Of a stretch of DNA of 64,000 nucleotides, positions 7,119-60,582 are shown piece after piece (position 1 is the first letter of the stretch; each line of letters begins with the position of its first letter). The stretch lies in the NCBI RefSeq assembly GCF_055900595.2, contig NZ_CM148325.1. One strand, 5' to 3'. Made by a program: the position numbers and the translations under genes. The notes under the pieces were generated by a model that saw only the letters and a program-made list of their open reading frames with translations, did no database searches and had not been told where the DNA came from.

Positions 7119-7621
7119 ACCACATTTCTGGAAAAGCGTATTGGGTAATGCAATGTTGTATAATATTATTTTATAGTTTCAATGAATTAATTCTCTCTCC
7201 CCCATCATAAAAATCACAAAAAAACAGCATTAAACATATAATTACGGCAAATATATTTTCATTACCTATATTAACTTTTCTCTTTATAAGAGGTTTTTAA
7301 TGATAATGAACCAGTTTATTCTGGGTACTATGCCTCACTCCCGGTATTAGCACTGGATAGCGCTTAACTGGATTCTGTCAGGCTGGGACGGGGCAACAAG
7401 AGCATACAACGACCAGTCCTTAACGCGTGATTATTAATTTCTACAGCGTATCATCATATTATTTAAATCTGCCCAACCTCACCAAATACATTCATAAAAT
7501 GCATAATGATAATAAATCATAAAATACATTCACCGAAGATATTTCTCTTTAAAGAGCGTGACATTTATAATAAGTATTGGTGAGAAAAATCACCCCCATT
7601 AATTTTTATAAGGATATTCCC

Positions 7622-8191
7622 ATGTTAAAAAAAAGTGCTATTGCTGCGGCATTAGTGATGTTCACCACTTCTGCTTTCGCGCTGGATGGCGGTCAATTAG
7701 ATTTCGCGGGTTTGGTGAGTGACAACACTTGCGTCTTGCACGTCAACGGTGGCGCCCAGGACGGTCAGATTACCCTGCAAACCGCCACAACCACTGAAGT
7801 TAATCAGGCCGGTGTTGTCCAACTTGCCAGCCCTGGCGCAAAACCGGAAGCCTTCTCTATTACGATCGATTGCTCGGACGATCCACAGGGCGCCTCTGCC
7901 AATCTGAGCATGGGTTCCGTGTTCTTCAGCAACAGTCAGGGCACTCTGAACAACGATCTCTCCATTAGCCAGGCGGCTACCGGGGTCGCGATTGCCATTC
8001 ACTACCTTACCGATGCCACTACCTACGAACAGATGAGAGTGAACGACAGCACTGATGTTAAAAACCTGCTGTTTACCAACGGCAAAGCGGTTTACAACTT
8101 TAAAGCGTCATATGTAAAACAGGCAGCAACAGTTAACGCAACGGCAGGTTATGTCAAAACCAACGCCGCTTATACAGTGACTTACCAGTAA
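7622..8191 (+). CDS. yadN: Fimbrial major subunit (type 1 pilin family), yad operon
   Basis: ATG at 7622 preceded by AAGGA; signal peptide MLKKSAIAAALVMFTTSAFA; pilin-like length and a C-terminal Tyr-rich beta-strand (YTVTYQ). The track ORF starts earlier at a TTG with no ribosome-binding site. Confidence 0.85.
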   Translation: MLKKSAIAAALVMFTTSAFALDGGQLDFAGLVSDNTCVLHVNGGAQDGQITLQTATTTEVNQAGVVQLASPGAKPEAFSITIDCSDDPQGASANLSMGSVFFSNSQGTLNNDLSISQAATGVAIAIHYLTDATTYEQMRVNDSTDVKNLLFTNGKAVYNFKASYVKQAATVNATAGYVKTNAAYTVTYQ

Positions 8192-8248
8192 ATATCTGCA
8201 TCACCCGACAGCCCACGGGCTGTTGGGTCACTCAATAAGGATAGTGTT

Positions 8249-8992
8249 ATGACCAGGATGTGTCAGTTTGTTGTTTCCACTGTTTTCGTCGCATCGACAG
8301 CCGTTTTCAGCCTCACCGCGCAAGCAGATATTGTGCTTTCCGGTACGCGCATTATTTACAATGCCGACCAGAAAGACGTCACATTGCGCATGGAAAACAA
8401 AGGTGCCCGTCCACTATTAGTTCAGACCTGGATTGATACCGGCAGCGAAAATGCCGACCCCAGCACACTGAAAGTGCCTTTTACCGTGACGCCGCCGGTT
8501 TCCCGCGTTGATGGTAAAAAAGGCCAAACGGTAAAAATTGCATGGAACGCCAGCCAGACCCTTCCAGCCGATCGCGAAAGCGTTTATTGGTTCAATGCGC
8601 TGGAAGTCCCCCCCAAGATGAGCGATGCCGATGCCAAAGGAAAAAACATTCTGCAACTGGCTTTCCGTACCCGTATCAAGCTGTTCTATCGCCCAACCGG
8701 TCTGGCGGGTAACCCGGCTGATGCACCAAAACAGTTAACCTGGCGTCTTCAGACTTCAGCCGGAAAAGTGGTGCTGCAGGCGACAAACCCAACGCCTTAT
8801 CACGTCTCATTCAGCAGTATTACCCTTGCCTCAGGCGGTAACAACTATACCGTGGAAACCAGTATGGTCGAGCCAAAAAGCAGTGCGGAAATGGTGGTAA
8901 AAGGCGCTCCCCATTCTGTGTCTGGCGCAACGGTTGATTACTCAGCCATAAATGATTTTGGCGGTGGAATTGACGGCAAAGTCAAACTTTGA
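8249..8992 (+). CDS. yadV: Periplasmic fimbrial chaperone (PapD/FimC family)
   Basis: 247-aa ORF with signal peptide and the PapD-like N-terminal fold signature (IYNADQKDVTLRMENKG...). Confidence 0.9.
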   Translation: MTRMCQFVVSTVFVASTAVFSLTAQADIVLSGTRIIYNADQKDVTLRMENKGARPLLVQTWIDTGSENADPSTLKVPFTVTPPVSRVDGKKGQTVKIAWNASQTLPADRESVYWFNALEVPPKMSDADAKGKNILQLAFRTRIKLFYRPTGLAGNPADAPKQLTWRLQTSAGKVVLQATNPTPYHVSFSSITLASGGNNYTVETSMVEPKSSAEMVVKGAPHSVSGATVDYSAINDFGGGIDGKVKL

Positions 8993-9024
8993 TGCCCACA
9001 GACCATATCGGCTGAGATCGTACA

Positions 9025-11631
9025 ATGAAAATCCCCGACGATGGCAAAAGAATTCAACGCTCGCCACTCGCTTGCCTGATTGCGTGTAGCCTGCTGCCCT
9101 GCACACAAAATGTGTGGGGGGCAAACGAGACCGTTGAGTTTGATAACACGTTCCTGATGGGTGCAGGCGCCAGGGATATTGATGTCAATCGTTATAGCAA
9201 AGGTAACGCAACATTACCGGGGCGCTATGACGTCAGCGTGTTTATTAATAACCAGGCCAGCGCCAATCTGAAAATCGAATTTATTGAATTAGACCCTGAA
9301 CACGCTGCTCAGCCCTGTATCTCCACCAACACATTATTACAACTGCATATTCGCCAGCCAGAAAAGTTAGCGGATAACGCAATTTTGCAAAAACGCGAAA
9401 ACGCTGCGCAGGATTGCCTGAACGTAGAGGTTGCTATTCCGCAATCGAGCGTCGCTTACAATAGCAACGATCAGCGGCTTGATATCAGCATGCCGCAAAT
9501 CTGGCTGCAGAGAACCTATGCCAACTATGTCGATCCGTCGCTGTGGGATGAAGGCATCAATGCCGCAATGCTCTCTTACACCCTTAACGGCTGGCGCAGT
9601 GAATCCCCCAATCAAACCACAGAAACCAGCTACGCCGGACTGATGGGCGGTATCAATTTATGGGGATGGCATTTTCGCTCACATGGTAACTATTCGTGGG
9701 ACAAAAAAGACGGCGGCAGTTTTGAATTCCAGGACAAATACCTGCAACGCGATATCGCCGCGCTCCGCTCTCAGCTGGTAATGGGTGAAACCAATACCAC
9801 AGGAGAAACCTTCGATTCTGTGCCTGTTCGTGGGCTGCGACTCTATAGCGAAAGCCGCATGTTGCCCCCAACGCTGGCATCATATGCGCCCGTTATCCGT
9901 GGCGTGGCAAACTCTAACGCGAAAGTCACGATCACCCAAAACGGCTATAAAATTTATGAAACGACCGTGCCGCCTGGTCCATTCGCGATTGACGATCTCA
10001 CGCCGGCAGGGTTCGGCGCCGATCTCGAGGTGACCATCACCGAATCGGACGGTTCAAAGCGTACGTTTAGTCAGGCTTATTCATCGGTGATCCAGATGAT
10101 GCGTCCCGGCGTGGGCAAATGGGATATCAGCGCCGGTGAGGTCAATAAAGAGGAACTCCAGGATAAACCGAACCTGCTGCAAGGTACCTACTATTACGGG
10201 TTGAGTAACACCTTCACCGGCTACACCGGCCTGCAAATGACCGATAACGGCTACTGGGCCGGTTTATTAGGGTTGGGGGTGAATACATCGCTGGGCGCTT
10301 TCTCATTCGATGTTACTCAGTCGCATGCCGAAATTCCTGACGATAAAACCTATAGTGGACAGAGTTACCGTGTTTCATGGAACAAATATTTCGCCCCGAC
10401 CGAAACCTCACTCAACATTGCCGCCTATCGCTACTCCACTGAAAACTATCTGGGGTTGAACGACGCGTTAACGCTGATTAATTCTGCCAACCATCCTGAT
10501 GAAGAAGGCTATTCGGGGATTGTCAGTTATGCACGCATGAAAAATCAGTTCAGCGTTAGCATTAATCAAACGTTAAAAAGTGATGAACGTGACTATGGCT
10601 CTTTCTATGTGAATGGCACATGGACAGATTACTGGGTAACCAACGAATCACAGAGCAGTTTTGCCTTTGGCTACAGCAATGCCTTTAACTGGGCGAGCTA
10701 CAGCGTCAGCCTGCAACGCACATACGACGAAGACAATAAGAAGGATGACTCGGTTTATCTGAGCGTGACCATTCCGCTTGATAAACTGCTTGGCCGCGAT
10801 AGCCATCAGGGCGGATTCAAAACCCTGAATACCAGCGTTAACAGCGACATGAAAGGTAGCTCGCAATATAACGCCAATGCCTCGGGCTACAGCCAGGATA
10901 ATCGCTGGAGTTACAGCGTGAATACTGCCTATAACGTGCAGAAAAACAGCGACAGCCTGAAAAGTATCAGCGGTTTTACCAGCTACGAGTCGCCGTGGGG
11001 AACATTTTCAGGCTCAGCCTCCACCAGCAGCGATCGCTCACGTCAGTATGGGCTCAGCACCGATGGCGGTTTTGTACTCCACCGCCACGGTCTGACCTTC
11101 AGTAACGACAGTTTTACCGACTCTGACACGTTGGCGCTGATCAACGCCCCGGGTGCAAAAGGCGCGCGCATTAACTTTGGTAACAGCACCATCGACCGTT
11201 TTGGCTACGGCGTGACCAGTTCACTGTCACCGTACCGGGAAAATACCGTCGCGCTCGATGTTAACGATCTGGATAACGACGTGGAACTCAAAAACACCAG
11301 TAGCGTCGCCATTCCGCGCCAGGGTTCCGTCATTTTCAGCCACTTTGACACCGACACCGGGCGTTCTGCCATTCTCAATCTACTGCGCAGCAACAATCAG
11401 CCCGTGCCGTTTGCTTCCGATATTACCGACGATAAAGGGACCTCTATCGGGACTGTCGGCCAGGGCAGTCAGGCATTTGTACGCGGTATCGCCGACAGCG
11501 GAGAACTGACGGTCACCTGGTATGAGAAAAATAGCCGCCAGCAGTGCCGTATTCATTATCAGATACCGTCATCACCCACCATGACCGGTAAAACCATCGT
11601 ACTCAACGCCGTGCCATGCACCCAGCAATAA
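9025..11631 (+). CDS. htrE: Outer-membrane fimbrial usher (FimD/PapC family)
   Basis: 868-aa ORF with usher-like N-terminal plug/beta-barrel sequence and a C-terminal Cys pair; sits between the chaperone and the minor pilins. Confidence 0.9.
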   Translation: MKIPDDGKRIQRSPLACLIACSLLPCTQNVWGANETVEFDNTFLMGAGARDIDVNRYSKGNATLPGRYDVSVFINNQASANLKIEFIELDPEHAAQPCISTNTLLQLHIRQPEKLADNAILQKRENAAQDCLNVEVAIPQSSVAYNSNDQRLDISMPQIWLQRTYANYVDPSLWDEGINAAMLSYTLNGWRSESPNQTTETSYAGLMGGINLWGWHFRSHGNYSWDKKDGGSFEFQDKYLQRDIAALRSQLVMGETNTTGETFDSVPVRGLRLYSESRMLPPTLASYAPVIRGVANSNAKVTITQNGYKIYETTVPPGPFAIDDLTPAGFGADLEVTITESDGSKRTFSQAYSSVIQMMRPGVGKWDISAGEVNKEELQDKPNLLQGTYYYGLSNTFTGYTGLQMTDNGYWAGLLGLGVNTSLGAFSFDVTQSHAEIPDDKTYSGQSYRVSWNKYFAPTETSLNIAAYRYSTENYLGLNDALTLINSANHPDEEGYSGIVSYARMKNQFSVSINQTLKSDERDYGSFYVNGTWTDYWVTNESQSSFAFGYSNAFNWASYSVSLQRTYDEDNKKDDSVYLSVTIPLDKLLGRDSHQGGFKTLNTSVNSDMKGSSQYNANASGYSQDNRWSYSVNTAYNVQKNSDSLKSISGFTSYESPWGTFSGSASTSSDRSRQYGLSTDGGFVLHRHGLTFSNDSFTDSDTLALINAPGAKGARINFGNSTIDRFGYGVTSSLSPYRENTVALDVNDLDNDVELKNTSSVAIPRQGSVIFSHFDTDTGRSAILNLLRSNNQPVPFASDITDDKGTSIGTVGQGSQAFVRGIADSGELTVTWYEKNSRQQCRIHYQIPSSPTMTGKTIVLNAVPCTQQ

Positions 11632-11647
11632 TGTTCCAGGAGAGGAA

Positions 11648-27623: not shown

Positions 27624-27971
27624 ATGAAGACGTTTTTCAGAACAGTGTTATTCGGCAGCTTGATGGCCGTCTGCGCAAACAGTTACGCGCTCAGCGAGTC
27701 TGAAGCCGAAGATATGGCCGATTTAACGGCAGTTTTTGTCTTTCTGAAGAACGATTGTGGTTACCAGAACTTACCAAACGGGCAGATTCGTCGCGCACTG
27801 GTCTTTTTCGCCCAGCAAAACCAGTGGGATCTCAGCAACTACGATACCTTCGACATGAAAGCCCTCGGTGAAGACAGCTACCGCGATCTCAGCGGCATCG
27901 GCATTCCCGTCGCTAAAAAATGCAAAGCCCTGGCTCGCGATTCCTTAAGCCTGCTTGCCTACGTCAAATAA
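27624..27971 (+). CDS. yacC: Small secreted protein YacC (PulS/OutS pilotin-like family)
   Basis: 115 aa starting at the ATG at 27624 with signal peptide MKTFFRTVLFGSLMAVCANSYA. The upstream part of the track ORF has no coding character. Confidence 0.8.
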   Translation: MKTFFRTVLFGSLMAVCANSYALSESEAEDMADLTAVFVFLKNDCGYQNLPNGQIRRALVFFAQQNQWDLSNYDTFDMKALGEDSYRDLSGIGIPVAKKCKALARDSLSLLAYVK

Positions 27972-45863: not shown

Positions 45864-46817
<954 letters not shown>

Positions 46818-47019
46818 TTGCTGACAGATTTATCCGCTCCATCGCGGGCGGATAATCTCCCCTTTCCCAACTTTCTTCGTAACGCCTCGCAAATTTCTTG
46901 TCTTTAGCTGCAACGTAATAAAAAACTCCGGAAGCTGCTTTCCCGTTTCGTTTTTTGCCCCTCGCTTGTGCTGATGGCGTTTGCCAAAGTAGCGCCAACC
47001 AAATCAAGGAGCGAAACAA

Positions 47020-47460
47020 ATGGACAAGCAACGCGGTTTTACACTTATCGAACTGATGGTGGTTATTGGCATCATTGCCATTTTAAGCGCCATTGGTATT
47101 CCCGCTTATCAAAACTACCTGCGCAAAGCCGCACTCACCGACATGCTACAAACCTTTGTGCCTTACCGTACCGCCGTAGAGTTGTGCGCGCTGGAACATG
47201 GTGGATTAGATACCTGCGACGGTGGCAGCAATGGCATTCCCTCGCCTACCACCACCCGCTATGTTTCAGCCATGAGTGTGGCAAAGGGCGTGGTGTCGCT
47301 GACCGGGCAAGAAAGTCTCAATGGGCTAAGCGTCGTCATGACACCGGGTTGGGATAACGCAAACGGCGTCACCGGCTGGACGCGCAACTGCAATATTCAA
47401 AGTGACAGCGCATTGCAGCAAGCCTGCGAAGATGTCTTTCGCTTTGATGACGCCAACTAA
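47020..47460 (+). CDS. ppdD: Type IV prepilin (prepilin peptidase-dependent protein D)
   Basis: N-terminus MDKQRGFTLIELMVVIGIIAILSAIGIPAY, the class III signal/GFTLIE motif of type IV pilins. Confidence 0.9.
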   Translation: MDKQRGFTLIELMVVIGIIAILSAIGIPAYQNYLRKAALTDMLQTFVPYRTAVELCALEHGGLDTCDGGSNGIPSPTTTRYVSAMSVAKGVVSLTGQESLNGLSVVMTPGWDNANGVTGWTRNCNIQSDSALQQACEDVFRFDDAN

Positions 47461-47469
47461 GGAGCGGCA

Positions 47470-48855
47470 ATGAATATTCCACAGCTCACCGCCCTGTGTC
47501 TGCGTTATCAGGGAGTCTTGCTGGATGCCAGCGAAGAGGTGGTTCATGTTGCGGTGGTCGATGCCCCTTCGCATGAGCTACTGGACGCATTGCATTTCGC
47601 TACCACCAAACGTATTGAGATCACCTGCTGGACGCGCCAACAAATGGAAGGTCACGCCAGTCGCACCCAACAGACATTGCCCGTAGCTATTCATGAGAAG
47701 CATCAGCCCAAAGCAGAGTTGCTGACTCGAACGTTACAATCTGCGCTGGAACAACGCGCGTCTGATATTCATATCGAACCAGCGGACAATGCCTACCGCA
47801 TCCGCTTGCGTATCGACGGTGTATTGCATCCTTTACCGGATGTTTTACCGGATGCCGGAGTCGCATTAACCGCCAGATTAAAAGTGCTGGGCAACCTGGA
47901 TATTGCGGAACATCGCCTGCCGCAGGACGGGCAATTCACTGTCGAACTGGCAGGAAACGCCGTCTCATTTCGTATTGCGACCTTACCATGCCAGGGTGGT
48001 GAAAAGGTGGTATTAAGGTTGTTACAGCAGGTGAGCCAGGCACTGGATATCAACACGCTGGGGATGCAGCCGTTACAACTGGCGGACTTTGCTCATGCCT
48101 TGCAACAACCACAGGGACTGGTGCTGGTAACTGGCCCTACAGGCAGCGGCAAAACGGTCACGCTTTATAGTGCCCTGCAAACGCTGAATACCGCTGACAT
48201 TAATATTTGTAGCGTCGAAGATCCGGTTGAGATCCCCATAGCCGGACTAAACCAGACGCAAATCCATCCGCGTGCCGGTCTTACCTTTCAGGGCGTTTTG
48301 CGTGCGTTATTGCGCCAGGACCCTGACGTCATCATGATCGGAGAGATCCGCGATGGCGAAACAGCAGAGATCGCTATTAAAGCGGCGCAAACCGGTCACC
48401 TGGTGTTGTCTACCCTACACACCAATTCCACCACTGAAACGCTGGTACGTTTACAGCAAATGGGAGTCGCCCGCTGGATGCTCTCATCGGCGCTTACGCT
48501 GGTAATAGCCCAGCGTCTGGTACGTAAACTTTGCCCACATTGTCGCCTGCAGCAAGGGGAGCCCATCCATATTCCAGACAATGTATGGCCGTCGCCGCTG
48601 CCCCGCTGGCAAGCACCCGGTTGTGTACATTGCTACCACGGTTTTTATGGTCGCACGGCCTTATTTGAAGTTCTGCCCATAACACCGTTCATACGTCAGC
48701 TTATTTCCGCTAATACCGACGTTGAATCGCTGGAAACGCACGCCCGACAGGCGGGTATGCGAACGCTTTTTGAAAACGGCTGCCTGGCCGTGGAGCAAGG
48801 CTTAACCACCTTTGAAGAGTTAATCCGCGTATTGGGAATGCCGCATGGCGAGTAA
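47470..48855 (+). CDS. hofB: Type IV pilus assembly ATPase (GspE/PilB family)
   Basis: Walker A GPTGSGKT and a C-terminal CxxC...CxxC zinc motif. Confidence 0.9.
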   Translation: MNIPQLTALCLRYQGVLLDASEEVVHVAVVDAPSHELLDALHFATTKRIEITCWTRQQMEGHASRTQQTLPVAIHEKHQPKAELLTRTLQSALEQRASDIHIEPADNAYRIRLRIDGVLHPLPDVLPDAGVALTARLKVLGNLDIAEHRLPQDGQFTVELAGNAVSFRIATLPCQGGEKVVLRLLQQVSQALDINTLGMQPLQLADFAHALQQPQGLVLVTGPTGSGKTVTLYSALQTLNTADINICSVEDPVEIPIAGLNQTQIHPRAGLTFQGVLRALLRQDPDVIMIGEIRDGETAEIAIKAAQTGHLVLSTLHTNSTTETLVRLQQMGVARWMLSSALTLVIAQRLVRKLCPHCRLQQGEPIHIPDNVWPSPLPRWQAPGCVHCYHGFYGRTALFEVLPITPFIRQLISANTDVESLETHARQAGMRTLFENGCLAVEQGLTTFEELIRVLGMPHGE

Positions 48856-50047
48856 GCAACTCTGGCGCTGGCGTGGCATAACCGGCGACGGCAATGCGCA
48901 AGATGGGATGCTATGGGCAGAGAGCCGTGCTTTGCTGCTCATAGCACTACAGCAACAGATGGTTACCCCACTTAGCCTGAAGCGAATCGCCATCAATTCT
49001 GCGCAGTGGCGAGGAGATAAAAGCGCGGAAGTCATTCATCAACTGGCGACGCTACTCAAAGCCGGGTTAACGCTTTCTGAAGGGCTGGCACTGCTGGCGG
49101 AACAGCATCCCAGTAAGCAATGGCAAGCGTTGCTGCAATCGCTGGCGCACGATCTCGAACAGGGCATTGCTTTTTCCAATGCCTTATTACCCTGGTCAGA
49201 GGTATTTCCGCCGCTCTATCAGGCAATGATCCGCACGGGGGAATTGACTGGTAAGTTAGATGAATGTTGCTTTGAACTTGCTCGTCAGCAAAAAGCCCAA
49301 CGTCAGTTAGCCGATAAAGTGAAATCAGCGTTGCGTTATCCCATCATCATTTTAGCGATGGCAATCATGGTGGTTGTGGCAATGCTGCATTTTGTACTGC
49401 CGGAGTTTGCTGCTATCTACAAGACCTTTAACACCCCATTACCGGCGCTAACGCAGGGGATCATGACGCTGGCAGACTTTAGTGGCGAATGGGGCTGGCT
49501 GCTGCTGTTGTTCGGCTTACTGCTGGCAATAGCCAATAAGTTGCTGATGCGCCGCCCGACCTGGCTTATCGCGCGGCAGAAATGGCTGTTACGCATCCCG
49601 ATTATGGGTTCACTGATGCGGGGACAAAAACTCACGCAGATCTTTACGATTCTGGCGCTGACTCAAAGTGCAGGCATTACTTTTTTACAGGGCGTAGAGA
49701 GCGTCAGAGAAACAATGCGCTGCCCGTACTGGGAGCAACTTCTGACACAAATCCAGCACGATATCAGTAACGGTCATCCTATCTGGCTGGCGCTAAAAAA
49801 TGCCGGTGAGTTTAGCCCGCTCTGTTTGCAATTAGTGAGAACAGGAGAGGCATCCGGTTCGCTGGATCTCATGTTAGACAACCTCGCCCGTCATCATCGG
49901 GATAACACCATGGCGCTGGCGGATAACCTTGCAGCCTTGCTCGAACCGGTGTTGCTGGTCATAACGGGAGGAATTATCGGTACGCTAGTGGTGGCAATGT
50001 ATTTGCCAATTTTCCATTTAGGCGATGCGATGAGTGGGATGGGATAA
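48845..50047 (+). CDS. hofC: Type IV pilus inner-membrane platform protein (GspF/PilC family)
   Basis: 400-aa polytopic ORF; overlaps the hofB stop by 11 bp. Confidence 0.9.
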   Translation: MASKQLWRWRGITGDGNAQDGMLWAESRALLLIALQQQMVTPLSLKRIAINSAQWRGDKSAEVIHQLATLLKAGLTLSEGLALLAEQHPSKQWQALLQSLAHDLEQGIAFSNALLPWSEVFPPLYQAMIRTGELTGKLDECCFELARQQKAQRQLADKVKSALRYPIIILAMAIMVVVAMLHFVLPEFAAIYKTFNTPLPALTQGIMTLADFSGEWGWLLLLFGLLLAIANKLLMRRPTWLIARQKWLLRIPIMGSLMRGQKLTQIFTILALTQSAGITFLQGVESVRETMRCPYWEQLLTQIQHDISNGHPIWLALKNAGEFSPLCLQLVRTGEASGSLDLMLDNLARHHRDNTMALADNLAALLEPVLLVITGGIIGTLVVAMYLPIFHLGDAMSGMG

Positions 50048-50081
50048 CGCTGGCGTGTTACTCCACGCCAGCATTGGGAGA

Positions 50082-51125
50082 TTACAGATTGTTGAAGATG
50101 CGGTTTTCTTGTTCCTGTACACGGATAAACGTAGTGCGCTTGGTCAGCTCTTTCAGGCGTGAAGCCCCAACGTATGTACAAGCTGAACGCAGGCCGCCCA
50201 AAATATCACGCGCGGTATTTTCAACCGGGCCTCGCAGCGGCAGCTTAACGGTTTTACCTTCTGCTGCGCGATATTCCGCAACGCCGCCAACGTGACGTTT
50301 CATCGCAGACTCGGAGCTCATGCCGTAGAACAGCATAAATTTCTCGCCGTTCTCCTCAACGATGCGACCGCCGCTCTCTTCGTGGCCCGCCAGCATGCCG
50401 CCAAGCATGACGAAATCGGCACCGCCGCCAAAGGCTTTCGCGACATCGCCCGGCGTGGTGCAGCCACCGTCGCTGACGATCATTCCGCCCAGACCATGCG
50501 CAGCATCGGCACATTCGATCACCGCAGAAAGTTGCGGATAACCGACGCCTGTTTTGACGCGAGTTGTACAAACAGAACCGGGGCCAATGCCAACTTTAAC
50601 GATATCAGCACCGGAGAGGATAAGCTCCTCACACATTTCACCTGTCACGACGTTGCCAGCACAAATGGTTTTGGTCGGCCACGCTTCACGCGCTTTCGCA
50701 ACGAACTGCACGAAGTGTTCAGAATAACCATTCGCCACATCAATACAAACGAAGTTTAATGCCGGGTTCAGGTCGAGAATCTGTTTAGTTTTTTCGAAAT
50801 CCGCATCAGACGTACCGGTAGAAACCATCACATGTTTCAGCACATCAGCGGAAGAATTGTTGATAAACGCTTGCCACTCTTCGACAGAATAGTGTTTATG
50901 CACAGCAGTCAGAATATCAAAAGAAGCCAGCGCAGAGGCCATAGAAAATGTGCCTACGGTGTCCATATTTGCGGCAATAATCGGCACGCCGGACCAGCTC
51001 TGACCTGAATGTTTAAAGGTGAATTGACGTTCCAGTTCAACATCGGAACGGCTTTTAAGAGTGGAGCGTTTAGGGCGGATGAGAACGTCTTTAAAACCTA
51101 ACTTCAGATCTTCTTCAATACGCAT
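50082..51125 (-). CDS. guaC: GMP reductase
   Basis: 347 aa, [35 protein letters not shown]... Confidence 0.95.
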
Positions 51126-52930: not shown

Positions 52931-53135
52931 GATGCGACGCTGGCCTGATAAGACGCGGGCAGCGTCGCATCAGGCATCGTGTGCAAATGTCGGATGCGGC
53001 GGGAACGCCTTATCCGACCTACAAGACCTTACATATCAACGTGTTAAAATTGTAGATGCTGATAAGACGCGCCAGCGTCGCATCGGGCATCTTGTGCAAA
53101 TGTTGGATGCGGCATAAACGCCTATCCGACATACA
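52931..53135. repeat. Cluster of four REP palindromes (BIME) between yacG and mutT
   Basis: Units at about 52931-52975, 52990-53024, 53057-53089 and 53102-53135, each matching REP consensus forms (GATGCGACGCTGGC..., GTCGGATGCGGCG...CGCCTTATCCGAC). Confidence 0.7.
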
Positions 53136-53520: not shown

Positions 53521-53540
53521 TGTCTTAAACCTATAAAAAA

Positions 53541-53558
53541 GGCGCAGAATCCTGCGCC
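53541..53558. terminator. Hairpin between secA and mutT (possible terminator or attenuator)
   Basis: GGCGCAG-AATC-CTGCGCC stem flanked by A6 and T4. Confidence 0.5.
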
Positions 53559-53579
53559 TTTTACTTCAACTGTTAGCTT

Positions 53580-56285
53580 TTATTGCAGGCGACCGTGGCA
53601 CTGCTTGTATTTTTTACCAGAACCGCACGGACAAGGATCATTACGTCCAACTTTGCGTTCACCGGTTTGTGCCGCCAGTGCAGCTGCGGCTGCAGAGTCG
53701 TCATCCTGATGGCTAAGCTGCTGCATTTGCGCTAAACGCTCGGCTTCCATACGACGCTGTTGTTCCAGCTCCTCAACCTCTTCAGGCATACGTACCTGGA
53801 CTTTGCTCAGCGTGCTGATGACTTCATATTTCAGCGACTCCAGCATCGCTGCAAACATGGAGAACGATTCACGTTTGTATTCCTGCTTCGGATCTTTCTG
53901 TGCATAGCCACGCAGGTGGATACCTTGACGCAGATAATCCATCGCCGCCAGGTGCTCTTTCCACAGGGAGTCAAGCGTTTGCAGCATGACGCCTTTCTCG
54001 AAGTGACGCATCATCTCAGCGCCAACCACTTCTTCTTTACGCTGATACACTTCGATGGACTGCGCCAGAATACGCTCACGCAGCGTCTCTTCATGCAGTT
54101 CTGGCTCTTTGTCCAGCCACTCGGCAATCGGCAAATCGAGGTCGAAATCGTTCTTCAGACGTTCCTGCAGCCCCGGAATATCCCACATTTCTTCCAGCGA
54201 CTGCGGCGGAATGTAGGCATCGATGGTCGCTTTGAACACATCTTCACGAATGCTGTTGATGGTATCGCTCACATCGCTGACATCCAGCAGTTCATTACGC
54301 TGGGAATAAATAGCGCGACGCTGATCGTTAGCCACGTCATCATATTCCAGCAGTTGCTTACGAATATCGAAGTTACGGCTTTCAACTTTACGCTGAGCGT
54401 TGGCAATCGCTTTTGTCACCCACGGGTGCTCGATGGCTTCGCCTGGTTTCATACCCAGTTTACGCATCATGCCGGAAACACGGTCAGAAGCAAAAATACG
54501 CATCAGCGCATCTTCCATCGACAGGTAGAAACGGGAAGAACCGGCATCCCCCTGGCGCCCAGAACGACCGCGTAACTGGTTATCGATACGACGAGATTCG
54601 TGACGTTCTGTACCGATGATATGCAGACCACCTGCAGCCAGTACCGCATCGTGACGCACCTGCCAGTCGGCTTTGATTTTTTCAATTTGCTCTGCGGTCG
54701 GATTTTCCAGCGCGGCAACTTCTGCCTGCCAGCTACCACCGAGCACAATATCTGTACCACGACCCGCCATGTTAGTCGCGATAGTCACCGCCGCCGGATA
54801 ACCCGCTTGTGCAACAATCGCTGCTTCGTTAGCGTGGAATTTGGCGTTCAGAACGTTGTGTTTGATACCGGCTTTGGTCAGTTCGTTTGACACCAGCTCA
54901 GATTTTTCGATGGAGATAGTACCCACCAGCACCGGCTGGCCTTTCGCAGTACGTTCTTTGATATCTTCAATGATCGCCTGAATTTTTTCCGCTTCAGTCA
55001 TGTAGACCAGGTCCGGCAGATCTTTACGAATCATTGGACGGTTGGTCGGAACAACGACGGTATCCAGCTTATAGATGGAGCTGAATTCGAAAGCTTCGGT
55101 ATCAGCAGTACCGGTCATCCCCGCCAGTTTTTCATACAGACGGAAGTAGTTCTGGAAGGTGATCGACGCCAGCGTCTGGTTTTCGTTCTGGATCTGTACA
55201 CCTTCTTTCGCTTCCACTGCCTGATGCAGGCCATCGGACCAACGACGTCCCTGCATGGTACGACCGGTGTGTTCGTCAACGATGATAACTTCACCATCTT
55301 TAACGATGTAGTCGACGTCTCGGGTAAACAGCGCATGAGCGCGCAGCGCCGCCGTTACGTGGTGCATCAGCATGATGTTGGCCGGAGAGTACAGAGACTC
55401 CCCTTCATCCATGATGCCTTCTTTCACCAGCAGTTCTTCAATCAGCACCAGACCACGTTCGGTCAGGTTCACCTGGCGAGATTTTTCGTCCACCGAGAAG
55501 TGGCCTTCGCCCTGGAAGGTTTCGGAGTCTTCTTTTTCCTGACGGATCAGGTGCGGAATAATTTTATTCACGCGTTTATACATTTCCGAGCTGTCTTCTG
55601 CCGGGCCGGAAATGATCAGCGGTGTACGCGCTTCATCGATCAGGATGGAGTCCACTTCGTCCACCAGCGCATAGTGCAGTTTACGCTGTACACGTTCTTC
55701 AGGGCTGAACGCCATGTTATCGCGCAGGTAGTCAAAGCCGTATTCGTTGTTCGTACCGTAAGTGATGTCAGCTGCGTAAGCTTCACGCTTCGCCGGTGCT
55801 GGCATACCCGGCAGGTTGATACCGACTGTCAGGCCGAGGAATTCAAACAGCGGACGGTTGTTTTCGGCGTCACGTTGCGCCAGGTAGTCGTTGACGGTAA
55901 CAACGTGTACGCCCTTACCGGTTAATGCGTTCAGGTAAGCAGGCAGCGTTGCGGTCAGGGTTTTACCTTCACCGGTACGCATTTCCGCGATGCAGCGTTC
56001 GTTAAGAACCATACCGCCGAGTAACTGAACGTCGAAGTGACGCATACCAAAGACGCGCTTACTTGCCTCACGCACTACAGCGAAAGCTTCTGGGATCAGA
56101 TTTTCCAGCACTTCGCCTTTTTCCAGACGTGCACGAAACTCTGCAGTTTTCCCTTTAAGTTCTTCGTCGGAGAGTTTTTCCATCTCCGGTTCCATGGCAT
56201 TGATAATGTTGACGACTTTGCGCATCCGGCGCAGGGTGCGATCGTTACGACTACCGAAAACTTTAGTTAATAATTTGATTAGCAT
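53580..56285 (-). CDS. secA: Preprotein translocase ATPase SecA
   Basis: 901 aa, [25 protein letters not shown]...; C-terminal zinc-binding [14 protein letters not shown]. Confidence 0.95.
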
Positions 56286-58107: not shown

Positions 58108-59259
58108 TTAATCAGCTTGCTTACGCAGGAATGCTGGGATATCCAGATAATCCGGCTCTTTCGCAGTTTGCGGCGCATTGTCATTCACGACTTTAGCAAC
58201 CGGCTTCTGCTCCTGGGTCAGCGGAGCCATCCCGTGCTGCTGGTAGCGATCCATCACTGGCTGCTGAACCTGCTTATTGGTCACCAGAGTGATTTCAGGA
58301 CGTTTGTCCATACCGATACCTGTCGCAACAACAGTTACGCGCAGCTCGTCATTCATATCCGGGTCAAGAGAAGTACCGATAACGACAGTTGCGTTGTCGG
58401 ATGCAAATGCACGGATGGTGTTACCTACCGTTTCGAACTCATCCAGACGCAGGTCGAAGCCCGCCGTGATGTTAACCAGCACGCCGCGCGCGCCAGACAG
58501 ATCGATATCTTCCAGCAGCGGAGAGGAGATAGCCATTTCAGCAGCTTCTTCCGCACGGTCTTCGCCGCTCGCCACACCAGAACCCATCATTGCGTAGCCC
58601 ATTTCAGACATTACGGTACGTACGTCTGCAAAGTCCACGTTCATCAGGCCTGGACGAGTAATCAGTTCAGCGATACCTTGCACAGCACCTTTCAGTACAT
58701 CGTTCGCTGCGCCAAATGCATCCAGCAGGGAGATACCGCGGCCCAAGACTTTCAGCAGTTTGTCGTTAGGGATAGTGATCAGAGAGTCCACATGCTTGGA
58801 CAGTTCAGTGATCCCCTGCTCAGCGAATGCCATACGCTTCTTGCCTTCAAAGTTGAAAGGCTTAGTCACGACAGCAACGGTCAGGATCCCCAAATCTTTT
58901 GCCACTTCAGCGACAACTGGTGCTGCACCAGTACCGGTACCACCACCCATACCCGCAGCAATAAAGACCATGTCTGCACCTTCCAGCGCCGCACGCAGTG
59001 CATCGCGATCCTCATCAGCCGCATTACGGCCAACTTCTGGATTTGCGCCAGCTCCCAGTCCTTTGGTGATACCGCTACCGATTTGAATCGTCTGTCCAAC
59101 CGCTGTTTTACGCAGCGCTTGTGCATCGGTATTTACCGCGAAGAATTCAACACCTTCAATGCGCTCGCGCACCATGTGTTCAACAGCATTACCGCCGCCG
59201 CCGCCGACGCCGATGACTTTAATCACCGCGTCATTGGTAAGTTCCATTGGTTCAAACAT
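58108..59259 (-). CDS. ftsZ: Cell division GTPase FtsZ
   Basis: 383 aa with tubulin signature GGGTGTG. Confidence 0.95.
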
Positions 59260-59319
59260 AGTTTCTCTCCGATTTGTGCCTGTCGCCTGAGGCCGTAATT
59301 ATCGTCGACCTCATAAAAA

Positions 59320-60582
59320 TTAAAACTCTTTTCGCAGCCAACTATTGAGTCGCTTGATCCACGAGCCAACTGATGCTGTAACACGTTTTTCTACTTCAGC
59401 TTCACCGTTAAGATGTGACTCTTTCCCATAGTGAAGCAATCCCACCGCCGTCGAATAATACGGCTCCTGAGCATAATCCGTTAAACCGGTAATGTTCAGC
59501 GGCGCGCCGATACGCACTTGCGTATGAAACACGCGCTGAGCACAGGCTGCAAGACCTTCGATCTGCGCTGCGCCACCAGTTAAAACAATGCCTGCCGCCA
59601 GGTGATGTTTAACCCCTTGTTGGCGAAGCTTTTCCTGCAACTGCAATATCTCTTCGTTGACCAGGTTGAGCAGCTCGGTATAGCGCGGCTCGATCACCTC
59701 TGCCAGGGTCTGACGTTGCAGACTCCGCGGTGGACGACCGCCTACGCTCGGCACTTCCACGCTCTCATCTTTTCCAACGATGGAACCCAGCGCACAACCG
59801 TGGCGAACTTTAATCGCTTCGGCGTCGCTTGGCGGCGTGCCAAAGGCGTAAGCGATATCACTGGTCACGACATTGCCAGCATAAGGAATTACCTTAGTGT
59901 GGCGCAATGCCCCACCGGTATAAACGGCGATATCCATTGTACCACCACCGATATCGACGACGCAGACACCCAGTTCACGTTCATCTTCCGTCAATACCGA
60001 ATAACTTGATGCCAGTCCGGCAAATATCAGTTGGTCAACTTTCAGCCCACAACGTTCAACCGCTTTGACGATGTTTTTCGCCATATCGTTGTGACATGTG
60101 ATCAGGTGCACTTTTGCCTGCATCCGCACGCCCGAAAGTCCTACCGGATTCTTGATCCCTTCCTGATAGTCAATCGCATACTCTTGCGGGATCACATGCA
60201 GCACACGATGCTCATCGCGCACACGCACTGATTTCGCGGTATGGACGACGTTTTCCACATCTTCTTGCGTCACTTCTTCTTCAGAAATAGGCACCATACC
60301 AATTTCATTCTGGCAGCTGATGTGCTTACCAGAAAGCGCCAGATATACCGAAGAGATCTGACAATCTGCCATCAATTCTGCCTGGTCAATGGCGCGTTGT
60401 ACGCACTTGACCACGGATTCGAGGTCGTTCACCCCGCCTTTATCCATACCACGCGACGGGCAGCTGCCCACGCCAATGATATTGACCATACCGTCGGGCA
60501 GAACTTCCCCTACTAAAGCGGCAACCTTCGCGGTACCAATCTCCAGTCCTACTACCAGTTTTCTGTCCGTCGCCTTGATCAT
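59320..60582 (-). CDS. ftsA: Cell division protein FtsA (actin-like ATPase)
   Basis: 420 aa, [27 protein letters not shown]... Confidence 0.95.

Follow-up and report, generated by a model that had tools for sequence, protein, structure and literature searches.

Intact ppdD-hofB-hofC (hcpABC) operon on an Escherichia coli chromosome: conserved core genes of the enterobacterial type IVa pilus

The ppdD-hofB-hofC operon of E. coli, its partner genes, its regulation through Sxy and a CRP-S site, the structure of its pilus, and its contributions to DNA uptake and to the adhesion of EHEC are already known from published work. In K-12, ppdD is induced about 90-fold by Sxy together with cAMP-CRP, and Sxy, CRP and cAMP are all needed (PMC1635313). 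Sxy also induces processed PpdD and a hofQ-dependent uptake of DNA, and PpdD was not made by any of 72 ECOR strains (PMC3330819). HCP pili are made by EHEC (PMC2920817, PMC2649431), where growth on Minca medium leads to expression of the operon as the haemorrhagic coli pilus (PMC2920817), and a plasmid carrying hofBC, hofMNOPQ, ppdAB-ygdB-ppdC and gspO yielded pili in E. coli (bioRxiv 10.1101/856302). The outputs described so far are low-level DNA uptake and, in EHEC, adhesion or inflammation. The enterobacterial type IVa pilus is also met under the names competence pilus and haemorrhagic coli pilus.

The stretch of DNA analyzed here (the window, 64,000 nt) is E. coli chromosome, with 8 mismatches over its full length to strain Z0117EC0005 (NZ_CP098223.1). 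Between nadC upstream (45924-46817, + strand) and the convergent guaC downstream (50082-51125, - strand), with ampDE and coaE as further neighbours, three genes were found:

47020..47460, + strand: ppdD (hcpA), type IVa major prepilin, 146 aa (open reading frame, Pfam, NCBIfam, PDB matches)
47470..48855, + strand: hofB (hcpB), PilB/GspE-family hexameric assembly ATPase, 461 aa (open reading frame, Pfam, NCBIfam, motifs)
48845..50047, + strand: hofC (hcpC), PilC/GspF-family inner-membrane platform protein, 400 aa (open reading frame, Pfam, NCBIfam, hydropathy)

In the list of open reading frames each of the three carries a single, terminal stop. A gap of 9 bp separates ppdD from hofB, and the hofC ATG at 48845 lies ahead of the hofB stop (48853-48855), which gives an overlap of 11 bp. 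A sequence-only reading of this DNA had described a tightly packed ppdD-hofB-hofC module between nadC and guaC, with an 11-bp overlap of hofB and hofC and all frames intact; its coordinates match the open reading frame list to the base, and the frames are indeed whole, as their lengths equal those of K-12 b0108, b0107 and b0106 and no stop other than the terminal one was present. The gene identities it gave were borne out by the NCBIfam equivalog cut-offs, passed by PpdD, HofB and HofC alike, with family scores well outside what chance would give. The Shine-Dalgarno sequence of hofB (AAGGAG) overlaps the ppdD stop, and the overlap of the hofC start with the end of hofB suggests that hofC is translationally coupled to hofB. 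We are highly confident that this is the ppdD-hofB-hofC (hcpABC) operon conserved on the E. coli chromosome, which encodes the core components of the type IVa pilus of enterobacteria, and that it is intact and ordinary.

The predicted pilin starts with MDKQRG/FTLIELMVVIGIIA (the slash marks the cleavage site), i.e., a basic leader of six residues, cleavage before F7, Gly at -1, Phe at +1, Glu at +5, and a hydrophobic helix, so that the canonical GFTLIE prepilin signature claimed earlier is present (MDKQRG/FTLIELM). It passed the Pfam N_methyl model (39.9 bits, cut-off 21.2), also matched TIGR02532, and scored 269 bits with the PRK10574/NF007862 equivalog (cut-off 138), while the Pfam Pilin domain was marginal (21.6 vs. 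22 bits). Residues 7-146 align with the solved PpdD pilus (PDB 6GV9, E 3e-91), and the PpdD pilin structure 6GMS was matched as well. In mature numbering, E5, C50-C60, C118-C130, E53, and H54 are all kept, the four cysteines being Cys56, Cys66, Cys124, and Cys136 of the precursor; the roles of these residues have been described (bioRxiv 10.1101/2021.04.14.439816). The protein is 100% identical to that of K-12, with 1 of 441 nucleotides different.

For HofB, the GspE/PilB-type assignment was supported by a Pfam T2SSE domain (484 bits) and the full set of ATPase motifs: Walker A at 222-229 (GPTGSGKT), Walker B at 287-295 (VIMIGEIRD), a His box at 315-319 (TLHTN), and the Zn-type CxxC pairs of the tetracysteine motif at 355-358 and 385-388. 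The PRK10436/NF007755 equivalog was matched with 817 bits (cut-off 617), and the protein shares 97.4% amino acid identity with K-12. Its N-terminus is short and weakly MshEN-like at 8-69, and its nearest solved relatives are PilB structures (5ZFR, 6OLJ, 5TSG, 3JC8), slightly ahead of GspE (4KSS). HofB did not reach the strict equivalog cut-off of PilB (TIGR02538, 484.6 vs. 675.65) or that of GspE (TIGR02533, 454.6 vs. 630.25), and is therefore an enterobacterial subfamily of its own, shortened at the N-terminus, that would work like PilB. HofC had likewise been read correctly, as a GspF/PilC-type platform protein: the Pfam T2SSF domain (PF00482) occurs in two stretches (193 bits), hydropathy analysis gave three hydrophobic segments at about 167-185, 212-235, and 369-395, and the PRK10573/NF007861 equivalog scored 661 bits (cut-off 401). 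It is 96.0% identical to K-12 at the amino acid level, and among solved structures the M. xanthus T4aP machine (3JC8) supplies its nearest relative, PilC, matched over the full length.

The intergenic regions on both sides of the operon hold three further elements:

46826..46858, + strand: hairpin just past the nadC stop, without a clear T-run (RNAfold, -16.0 kcal/mol for 46818-46870)
46873..46894, strand not assigned: candidate 22-bp CRP-S site, TCT-TTCGT-AACGCC-TCGCA-AAT, with the C6 and G17 hallmarks
50049..50072, strand not assigned: inverted repeat in the 34-bp hofC-guaC spacer, with a G+C-rich stem of 9 bp (RNAfold, -18.1 kcal/mol)

The stem of the first hairpin is kept in 7 of 8 strains, with 2 changes in O157:H7, and judged by its fold and position it may act as a nadC terminator or may insulate the ppdD promoter region that follows. 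The candidate CRP-S site has a perfect right half-site (TCGCA) and a left half-site matching at 3 of 5 positions, with C6 at 46878 and G17 at 46889, and its centre (about 46883.5) precedes the ppdD ATG by about 136 bp. It is the sole match with at most two mismatches to TGCGA-N6-TCGCA in the nadC-ppdD spacer, from which the canonical CRP site TGTGA-N6-TCACA is absent. By sequence alone the candidate is weak (200 bp should contain about 0.1 such matches by chance). All of 8 diverse E. coli strains have it unchanged, and it lies within 46806-46936, the EMSA fragment that bound CRP in PMC1635313, a fragment that was placed by mapping the primers of that study onto the window, so that the location of the site is indirect. 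The CRP-S sites that the sequence-only reading had proposed to look for upstream of ppdD are represented by one C6/G17 candidate in a CRP-bound fragment, albeit with two mismatches in the left half-site, while the Sxy and CRP induction it wished to see tested has already been published for K-12, at about 90-fold (PMC1635313). A scan of 46700-50300 for sigma-70-like promoters found none, against 3.0 expected. Terminator-like matches in the same scan were weak or within coding sequence. An Rfam scan of the window yielded no RNA family between 46.8 and 50.1 kb. The inverted repeat between hofC and guaC was missed by the terminator scan because it has no T-run; it is kept in K-12, where the single difference within the hairpin falls in the loop, and it is probably a transcript-end hairpin shared by the two genes.

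Based on family knowledge and the published reconstitution, the following mechanism can be proposed. A weak promoter in the nadC-ppdD spacer would start transcription and would fire only with cAMP-CRP aided by Sxy (TfoX) at the CRP-S site, so that the operon would stay silent in ordinary culture, and the translation of hofB and hofC would be coupled to that of the upstream genes. The PpdD prepilin would insert into the inner membrane, where an unlinked A24 peptidase (PppA or of GspO/HopD type) would cut it after Gly6 and N-methylate it. ATP hydrolysis by a HofB hexamer would then, via the HofC platform, build the mature pilin into a helical filament. The minor pilins PpdA, PpdB, YgdB, and PpdC would prime this filament, which would pass the HofMNOP alignment complex and exit through the HofQ secretin.

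Such a machine needs components from outside the module. The statement that the module contains neither secretin nor prepilin peptidase is upheld in the window: the annotation of NZ_CP098223.1, which differs at 8 of 64,000 nt from the 64-kb window, lists 59 features for this stretch, and neither a secretin nor an A24 peptidase is among them. The stated dependence on unlinked genes also holds in this near-identical genome, used as a proxy (99.99% identical to the window): hofMNOPQ, ppdAB-ygdB-ppdC and pppA are each annotated as intact at unlinked loci, and a minimal A24 peptidase of 155 aa is annotated as intact as well. A secretin, a PilMNOP-like alignment complex, minor pilins, and an A24 peptidase are therefore all encoded in the proxy genome and none of them in the window. 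Across E. coli, hofMNOPQ occurs in 5425 of 5426 genomes and ppdA-C likewise in 5425 of 5426. A PilT homologue, yggR, exists in E. coli.

Of 5426 complete E. coli genomes, 5424 contain the locus itself, and only 81 of the 5424 reach at least 99% identity to it. In 8 diverse strains, O157:H7 and ATCC 25922 among them, it is intact and its genes have identical lengths. Among these 8 strains, mean dN/dS was 0.14 for ppdD, 0.11 for hofB, and 0.12 for hofC, i.e., 4 to 10 times the values of nadC and guaC (0.01-0.03), from which it follows that the module is under purifying selection and that the constraint is real but relaxed. The amino acid variation of hofB and hofC exceeds that of the neighbours (8 distinct proteins in 8 strains), and their synonymous diversity is about 1.5-2 times that of the flanking housekeeping genes. 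The near-identity of ppdD between the window and K-12 (1 of 441 nt) was considered as a case of unusual conservation and rejected, since ppdD has 15 segregating sites and a dS of 0.034 across the 8 strains, below its neighbours but not invariant; we treat the near-identity as mosaic ancestry or small-gene noise.

Two departures from this ordinary picture can be imagined, both of which we consider improbable. One is that the lineage wires or uses its PpdD pilus unlike K-12 and EHEC, and the differences might, for example, include another processing peptidase (the closest complete genome has no T2SS-alpha cluster, keeping only the minimal 155-aa A24 peptidase) or other natural inducing conditions. 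The other, separate from it, is pilin-specific recombination or selection, in which case the contrast in diversity between ppdD and hofB/hofC might reflect such a process on the pilin and not sampling noise.

Even less probable, in our judgement, is that the module is a decaying relic without a selected function, whose frames are open by chance or through recent silencing. It would fit with the silence of the module in standard culture and with the 0 of 72 ECOR strains that made PpdD (PMC3330819), with the lack of a promoter-like site in 46700-50300, and with a dN/dS of hofB and hofC (about 0.11-0.12) above that of the neighbours (0.01-0.03). However, 3 kb of open frame of identical length in 8 of 8 strains and a locus present in 5424 of 5426 genomes speak against decay, dN/dS is far below 1, the catalytic and structural motifs are all intact, and inducible expression, processing, pilus assembly, and DNA uptake were shown experimentally in E. 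coli (PMC1635313, PMC3330819, bioRxiv 10.1101/856302). The relic reading was rejected on the grounds of intact frames in 8 strains, dN/dS well below 1, and published function. The word "cryptic" in the sequence-only reading is accurate for standard culture, in which the module is silent, but has to give way to "conditional", as Sxy and cAMP-CRP induce it (PMC1635313) and EHEC on Minca medium expresses it (PMC2920817).

The least probable reading, that of a T2SS remnant in which HofB and HofC power a secretion pseudopilus instead of a pilus, can draw on the name "GspE" given to HofB by RefSeq ("gspE: type II secretion system protein GspE") and by NCBIfam PRK10436, on strong matches to GspE/GspF structures (4KSS, E 4e-99 for HofB; GspF domains for HofC), and on the assembly of PpdD that a heterologous T2SS can carry out, as cited in PMC2649431, but it is effectively refuted, because the genes next to the module include neither gspC, L, M or D nor pseudopilins G-K, true T2SS clusters lie at other loci with their own GspE and GspF, HofB scores higher with PilB than with GspE in both models and structures, the full-length match of HofC is PilC, the solved structure 6GV9 shows PpdD as a genuine T4a pilus, and the working gene set (the module with hofMNOPQ and the minor pilins) has the architecture of a T4aP. 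The RefSeq label is a naming convention and no evidence of a T2SS, and this "GspE/type II secretion" label on hofB should not be taken to mean a secretion system.

With the type IVa pilus operon as the preferred reading, the proposals of the sequence-only reading turn out to be already published for K-12 and EHEC and open nothing new; the value of the check lies in showing that the annotation is right, that the genes are intact and under constraint, and that the locus is core to E. coli. Compared with GspE, GspF, and GspG, the ATPase and the platform protein are homologous and the N-terminus of PpdD is pseudopilin-like, whereas the module is without GspC, L, M, D, and minor pseudopilins and its product is a true surface pilus (6GV9). 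The PilA-PilB-PilC T4aP of P. aeruginosa and M. xanthus shares its three core components and its ATPase motifs with the module; in contrast, HofB lacks about 100 N-terminal residues relative to PilB and scores too low for the PilB equivalog, PpdD has a second disulfide, C50-C60, that is specific to enterobacteria (10.1101/2021.04.14.439816), and the E. coli genes are spread over four or more loci, with no linked dedicated retraction ATPase. The pilABCD operons of H. influenzae and V. cholerae share the order of pilin, ATPase, and platform protein, control by Sxy/TfoX and CRP at non-canonical TGCGA-type sites, and a role in DNA uptake (PMC1635313), but they carry the peptidase gene pilD, while the module described here relies on an unlinked PppA or GspO/HopD-type enzyme. 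The closest counterpart is the operon of K-12 (b0108-b0106) and EHEC (hcpABC), with the same position between nadC and guaC, the same gene lengths, the same 9-bp gap and the same 11-bp overlap. The upstream spacer of K-12 is alike (9 substitutions in 202 bp, none of them in the candidate CRP-S site, so that the CRP-S-like site is kept), and the differences from K-12 are only allelic, amounting to 3-4.5% nucleotide divergence in hofB and hofC.

The sequence-only reading had described an intact cryptic type IV pilin module between nadC and guaC, served by an unlinked secretin and prepilin peptidase; the observation was confirmed and its interpretation is supported by what follows. The list of open reading frames for 44-53 kb returned all three frames at exactly the coordinates proposed, together with the 11-base overlap of hofB and hofC (hofC ATG at 48845 to the end of the hofB TAA at 48855); both the genes and their coupling are directly observed. 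The gap between ppdD and hofB is 9 bases and the Shine-Dalgarno sequence of hofB (AAGGAG) overlaps the ppdD stop.

Features of the ppdD-hofB-hofC locus (window positions)
45924-46817, same strand as the module: nadC, upstream neighbour
46826-46858: hairpin just after nadC, -16 kcal/mol
46873-46894: candidate CRP-S-like site, TCT-TTCGT-AACGCC-TCGCA-AAT
47020-47460, + strand: ppdD, 146 aa, N-terminus MDKQRGFTLIELM
47470-48855, + strand: hofB, 461 aa
48845-50047, + strand: hofC, 400 aa
50049-50072: 9-bp G+C-rich hairpin without T-run, -18 kcal/mol, taking up most of the 34 bp that separate convergent hofC and guaC; probably a transcript-end structure shared by both
50082-51125, convergent: guaC, downstream neighbour

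Using megablast, 46500-50500 was matched in 5,424 of 5,426 complete E. coli genomes (eight at 100% identity), the annotated features under the match being nadC, ppdD, 'gspE' (= hofB), hofC and guaC. Of the 5,437 places matched, three are on plasmid-labelled records, and two complete genomes of the collection do not have the locus; these cases may stem from deletions or be artefacts of assembly or labelling. Strain Z0117EC0005 (NZ_CP098223.1) differs from the whole 64-kb window at only 8 positions, which identifies the window as a stretch of the E. coli chromosome, roughly from hrpB to murG. Outside the ppdD-hofC region, which has no gathering-level Rfam match, four such matches were found:

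41555-41668, + strand: tp2
52942-53019, - strand: naRNA4 (REP-derived nucleoid-associated RNA)
53535-53604, - strand: STnc40
59251-59340, - strand: PssrA

Between panB and folK there is a yad-type chaperone-usher cluster (~7600-14700, -/+; record 913485-920520; fimbrial subunit, chaperone, usher and four fimbrial proteins), a separate adhesin system with no relation to the type IV pilus.

Each protein exceeds the curated cut-off of its own E. coli equivalog in NCBIfam: PpdD (NF007862, 269 bits, cut-off 138), HofB (NF007755, 817 bits, cut-off 617) and HofC (NF007861, 661 bits, cut-off 401). Pfam assigned N_methyl and a marginal Pilin domain to PpdD, T2SSE (484 bits) and a weak N-terminal MshEN match to HofB, and two T2SSF repeats to HofC. 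The motifs were observed directly: HofB carries Walker A (GPTGSGKT, residues 222-229), Walker B (287-295), a His box (315-319) and two CxxC pairs (355-358, 385-388), while PpdD retains E5, the cysteines C50-C60 and C118-C130, E53 and H54, residues tied to assembly and stability (bioRxiv 10.1101/2021.04.14.439816). An assignment of the module to type II secretion, for which the RefSeq name of hofB is the sole basis, fails, being contradicted by the gene context and by the nature of PpdD. In PDB sequence searches, residues 7-146 of PpdD matched the cryo-EM pilus 6GV9 (E 3e-91) and the protein also matched the NMR pilin 6GMS; the only full-length match of HofC was PilC of the M. xanthus T4aP machine, and the best matches of HofB were PilB structures (5ZFR, 6OLJ, 5TSG, 3JC8), slightly ahead of GspE. 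The NCBIfam PilB model likewise scored HofB higher than the GspE model, both below their strict cut-offs; HofB represents an enterobacterial subfamily of its own, with a shorter N-terminus.

ppdD, hofB and hofC match their K-12 counterparts exactly in length (amino-acid identities: PpdD 100%, HofB 97.4%, HofC 96.0%), and they are intact and of identical length in all eight genomes compared (the window, K-12 and six others taken at descending similarity, O157:H7 and ATCC 25922 among them), in agreement with the intact frames first noted.

Mean pairwise dN/dS and mean dS across eight strains
nadC: 0.03; 0.056
ppdD: 0.14; 0.034
hofB: 0.11; 0.09
hofC: 0.12; 0.11
guaC: 0.013; 0.064

ppdD, hofB and hofC are genuinely under purifying selection, though less strongly than their housekeeping neighbours nadC and guaC, and this disfavours a decaying relic; that the module is a pseudogene is contradicted by this dN/dS, by the observed conservation and by published function. 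Synonymous diversity is somewhat higher in hofB and hofC than in nadC and guaC, and lowest of the five in ppdD. Compared with K-12, ppdD differs at 1 of 441 nt, whereas the divergence of nadC, hofB, hofC, guaC and the upstream spacer is 2-4.5%; mosaic recombination, or noise from the small sample, could account for this.

No canonical CRP site lies in the 202-bp nadC-ppdD spacer, and no sigma-70-like promoter was found in 46700-50300 (3.0 expected). A candidate CRP-S site is present upstream of ppdD, at 46873-46894; its right half-site is perfect and it shows the diagnostic C6 and G17, although as a sequence match it is weak by itself (~0.1 expected per 200 bp). It gains weight because it falls inside 46806-46936, the fragment bounded by the published ppdDF/ppdDR primers as mapped onto the window, which binds CRP weakly but specifically (Cameron and Redfield, PMC1635313), because it is the sole such match there and because the 29-bp block containing it is invariant across the eight strains.

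Sxy/CRP-dependent transcription, PpdD processing, pilus assembly together with the unlinked genes, uptake of DNA and adhesion are known from published work. Sxy induces ppdD 90-fold, with CRP and cAMP strictly required (PMC1635313), and leads to processed PpdD and hofQ-dependent DNA uptake; none of 72 ECOR strains made PpdD in ordinary culture (PMC3330819). EHEC produces these pili (HCP) in Minca medium (PMC2920817; PMC2649431), and a plasmid with hofB, hofC, hofMNOPQ, ppdAB-ygdB-ppdC and gspO yields pili in E. coli (bioRxiv 10.1101/856302).

Partner genes were checked by proxy in the near-identical NZ_CP098223.1, where no secretin or A24 peptidase is among the 59 annotated features of the stretch that corresponds to the window and the partners are indeed unlinked: hofMNOPQ is intact beside aroK and mrcA, ppdA-ppdB-ygdB-ppdC is intact beside recC, and a 269-aa PppA is encoded intact within a complete T2SS-beta cluster. 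hofMNOPQ and ppdA-C were each present in 5,425 of 5,426 genomes. The window also holds yacC (27624-27971, + strand), an orphan PulS/OutS-type pilotin-like lipoprotein gene (PF09691, 37.6 bits) that lies ~19 kb away from ppdD and has no secretin gene close to it. Directly beside the T2SS-beta/pppA/sslE cluster of NZ_CP098223.1 lies a pheV-associated island (L012:13606-44564, a stretch of that genome; ~3933605-3964563) with an integrase, IS remnants, a toxin-antitoxin pair and a group 2 kps capsule locus, which suggests an extraintestinal-type lineage.

In this strain, cAMP-CRP with Sxy would start transcription from the candidate site, PpdD would be cleaved after Gly6 by PppA or a short A24 enzyme, and HofB and HofC would polymerise it onto a minor-pilin tip and out via HofMNOP-HofQ.

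The T2SS-alpha cluster gspA-gspM, located between rpsJ and bfr in K-12, is absent from NZ_CP098223.1, where this place keeps only a gene for a 155-aa A24 prepilin peptidase (L009:29981-30448, another stretch of that genome; 4314980-4315447). When aligned with K-12 GspO the protein proves strongly divergent, but it spans the Peptidase_A24 domain in full with both aspartate motifs retained, and it therefore appears to be a plausible, if minimal, enzyme. The ppdD-hofB-hofC operon itself is a textbook part of the E. coli core genome and already known, and its lineage-specific details are few, namely the absence of T2SS-alpha from the closest genome, which keeps a minimal peptidase, and a ppdD near-identical to that of K-12 in a 2-4.5% divergent neighbourhood.
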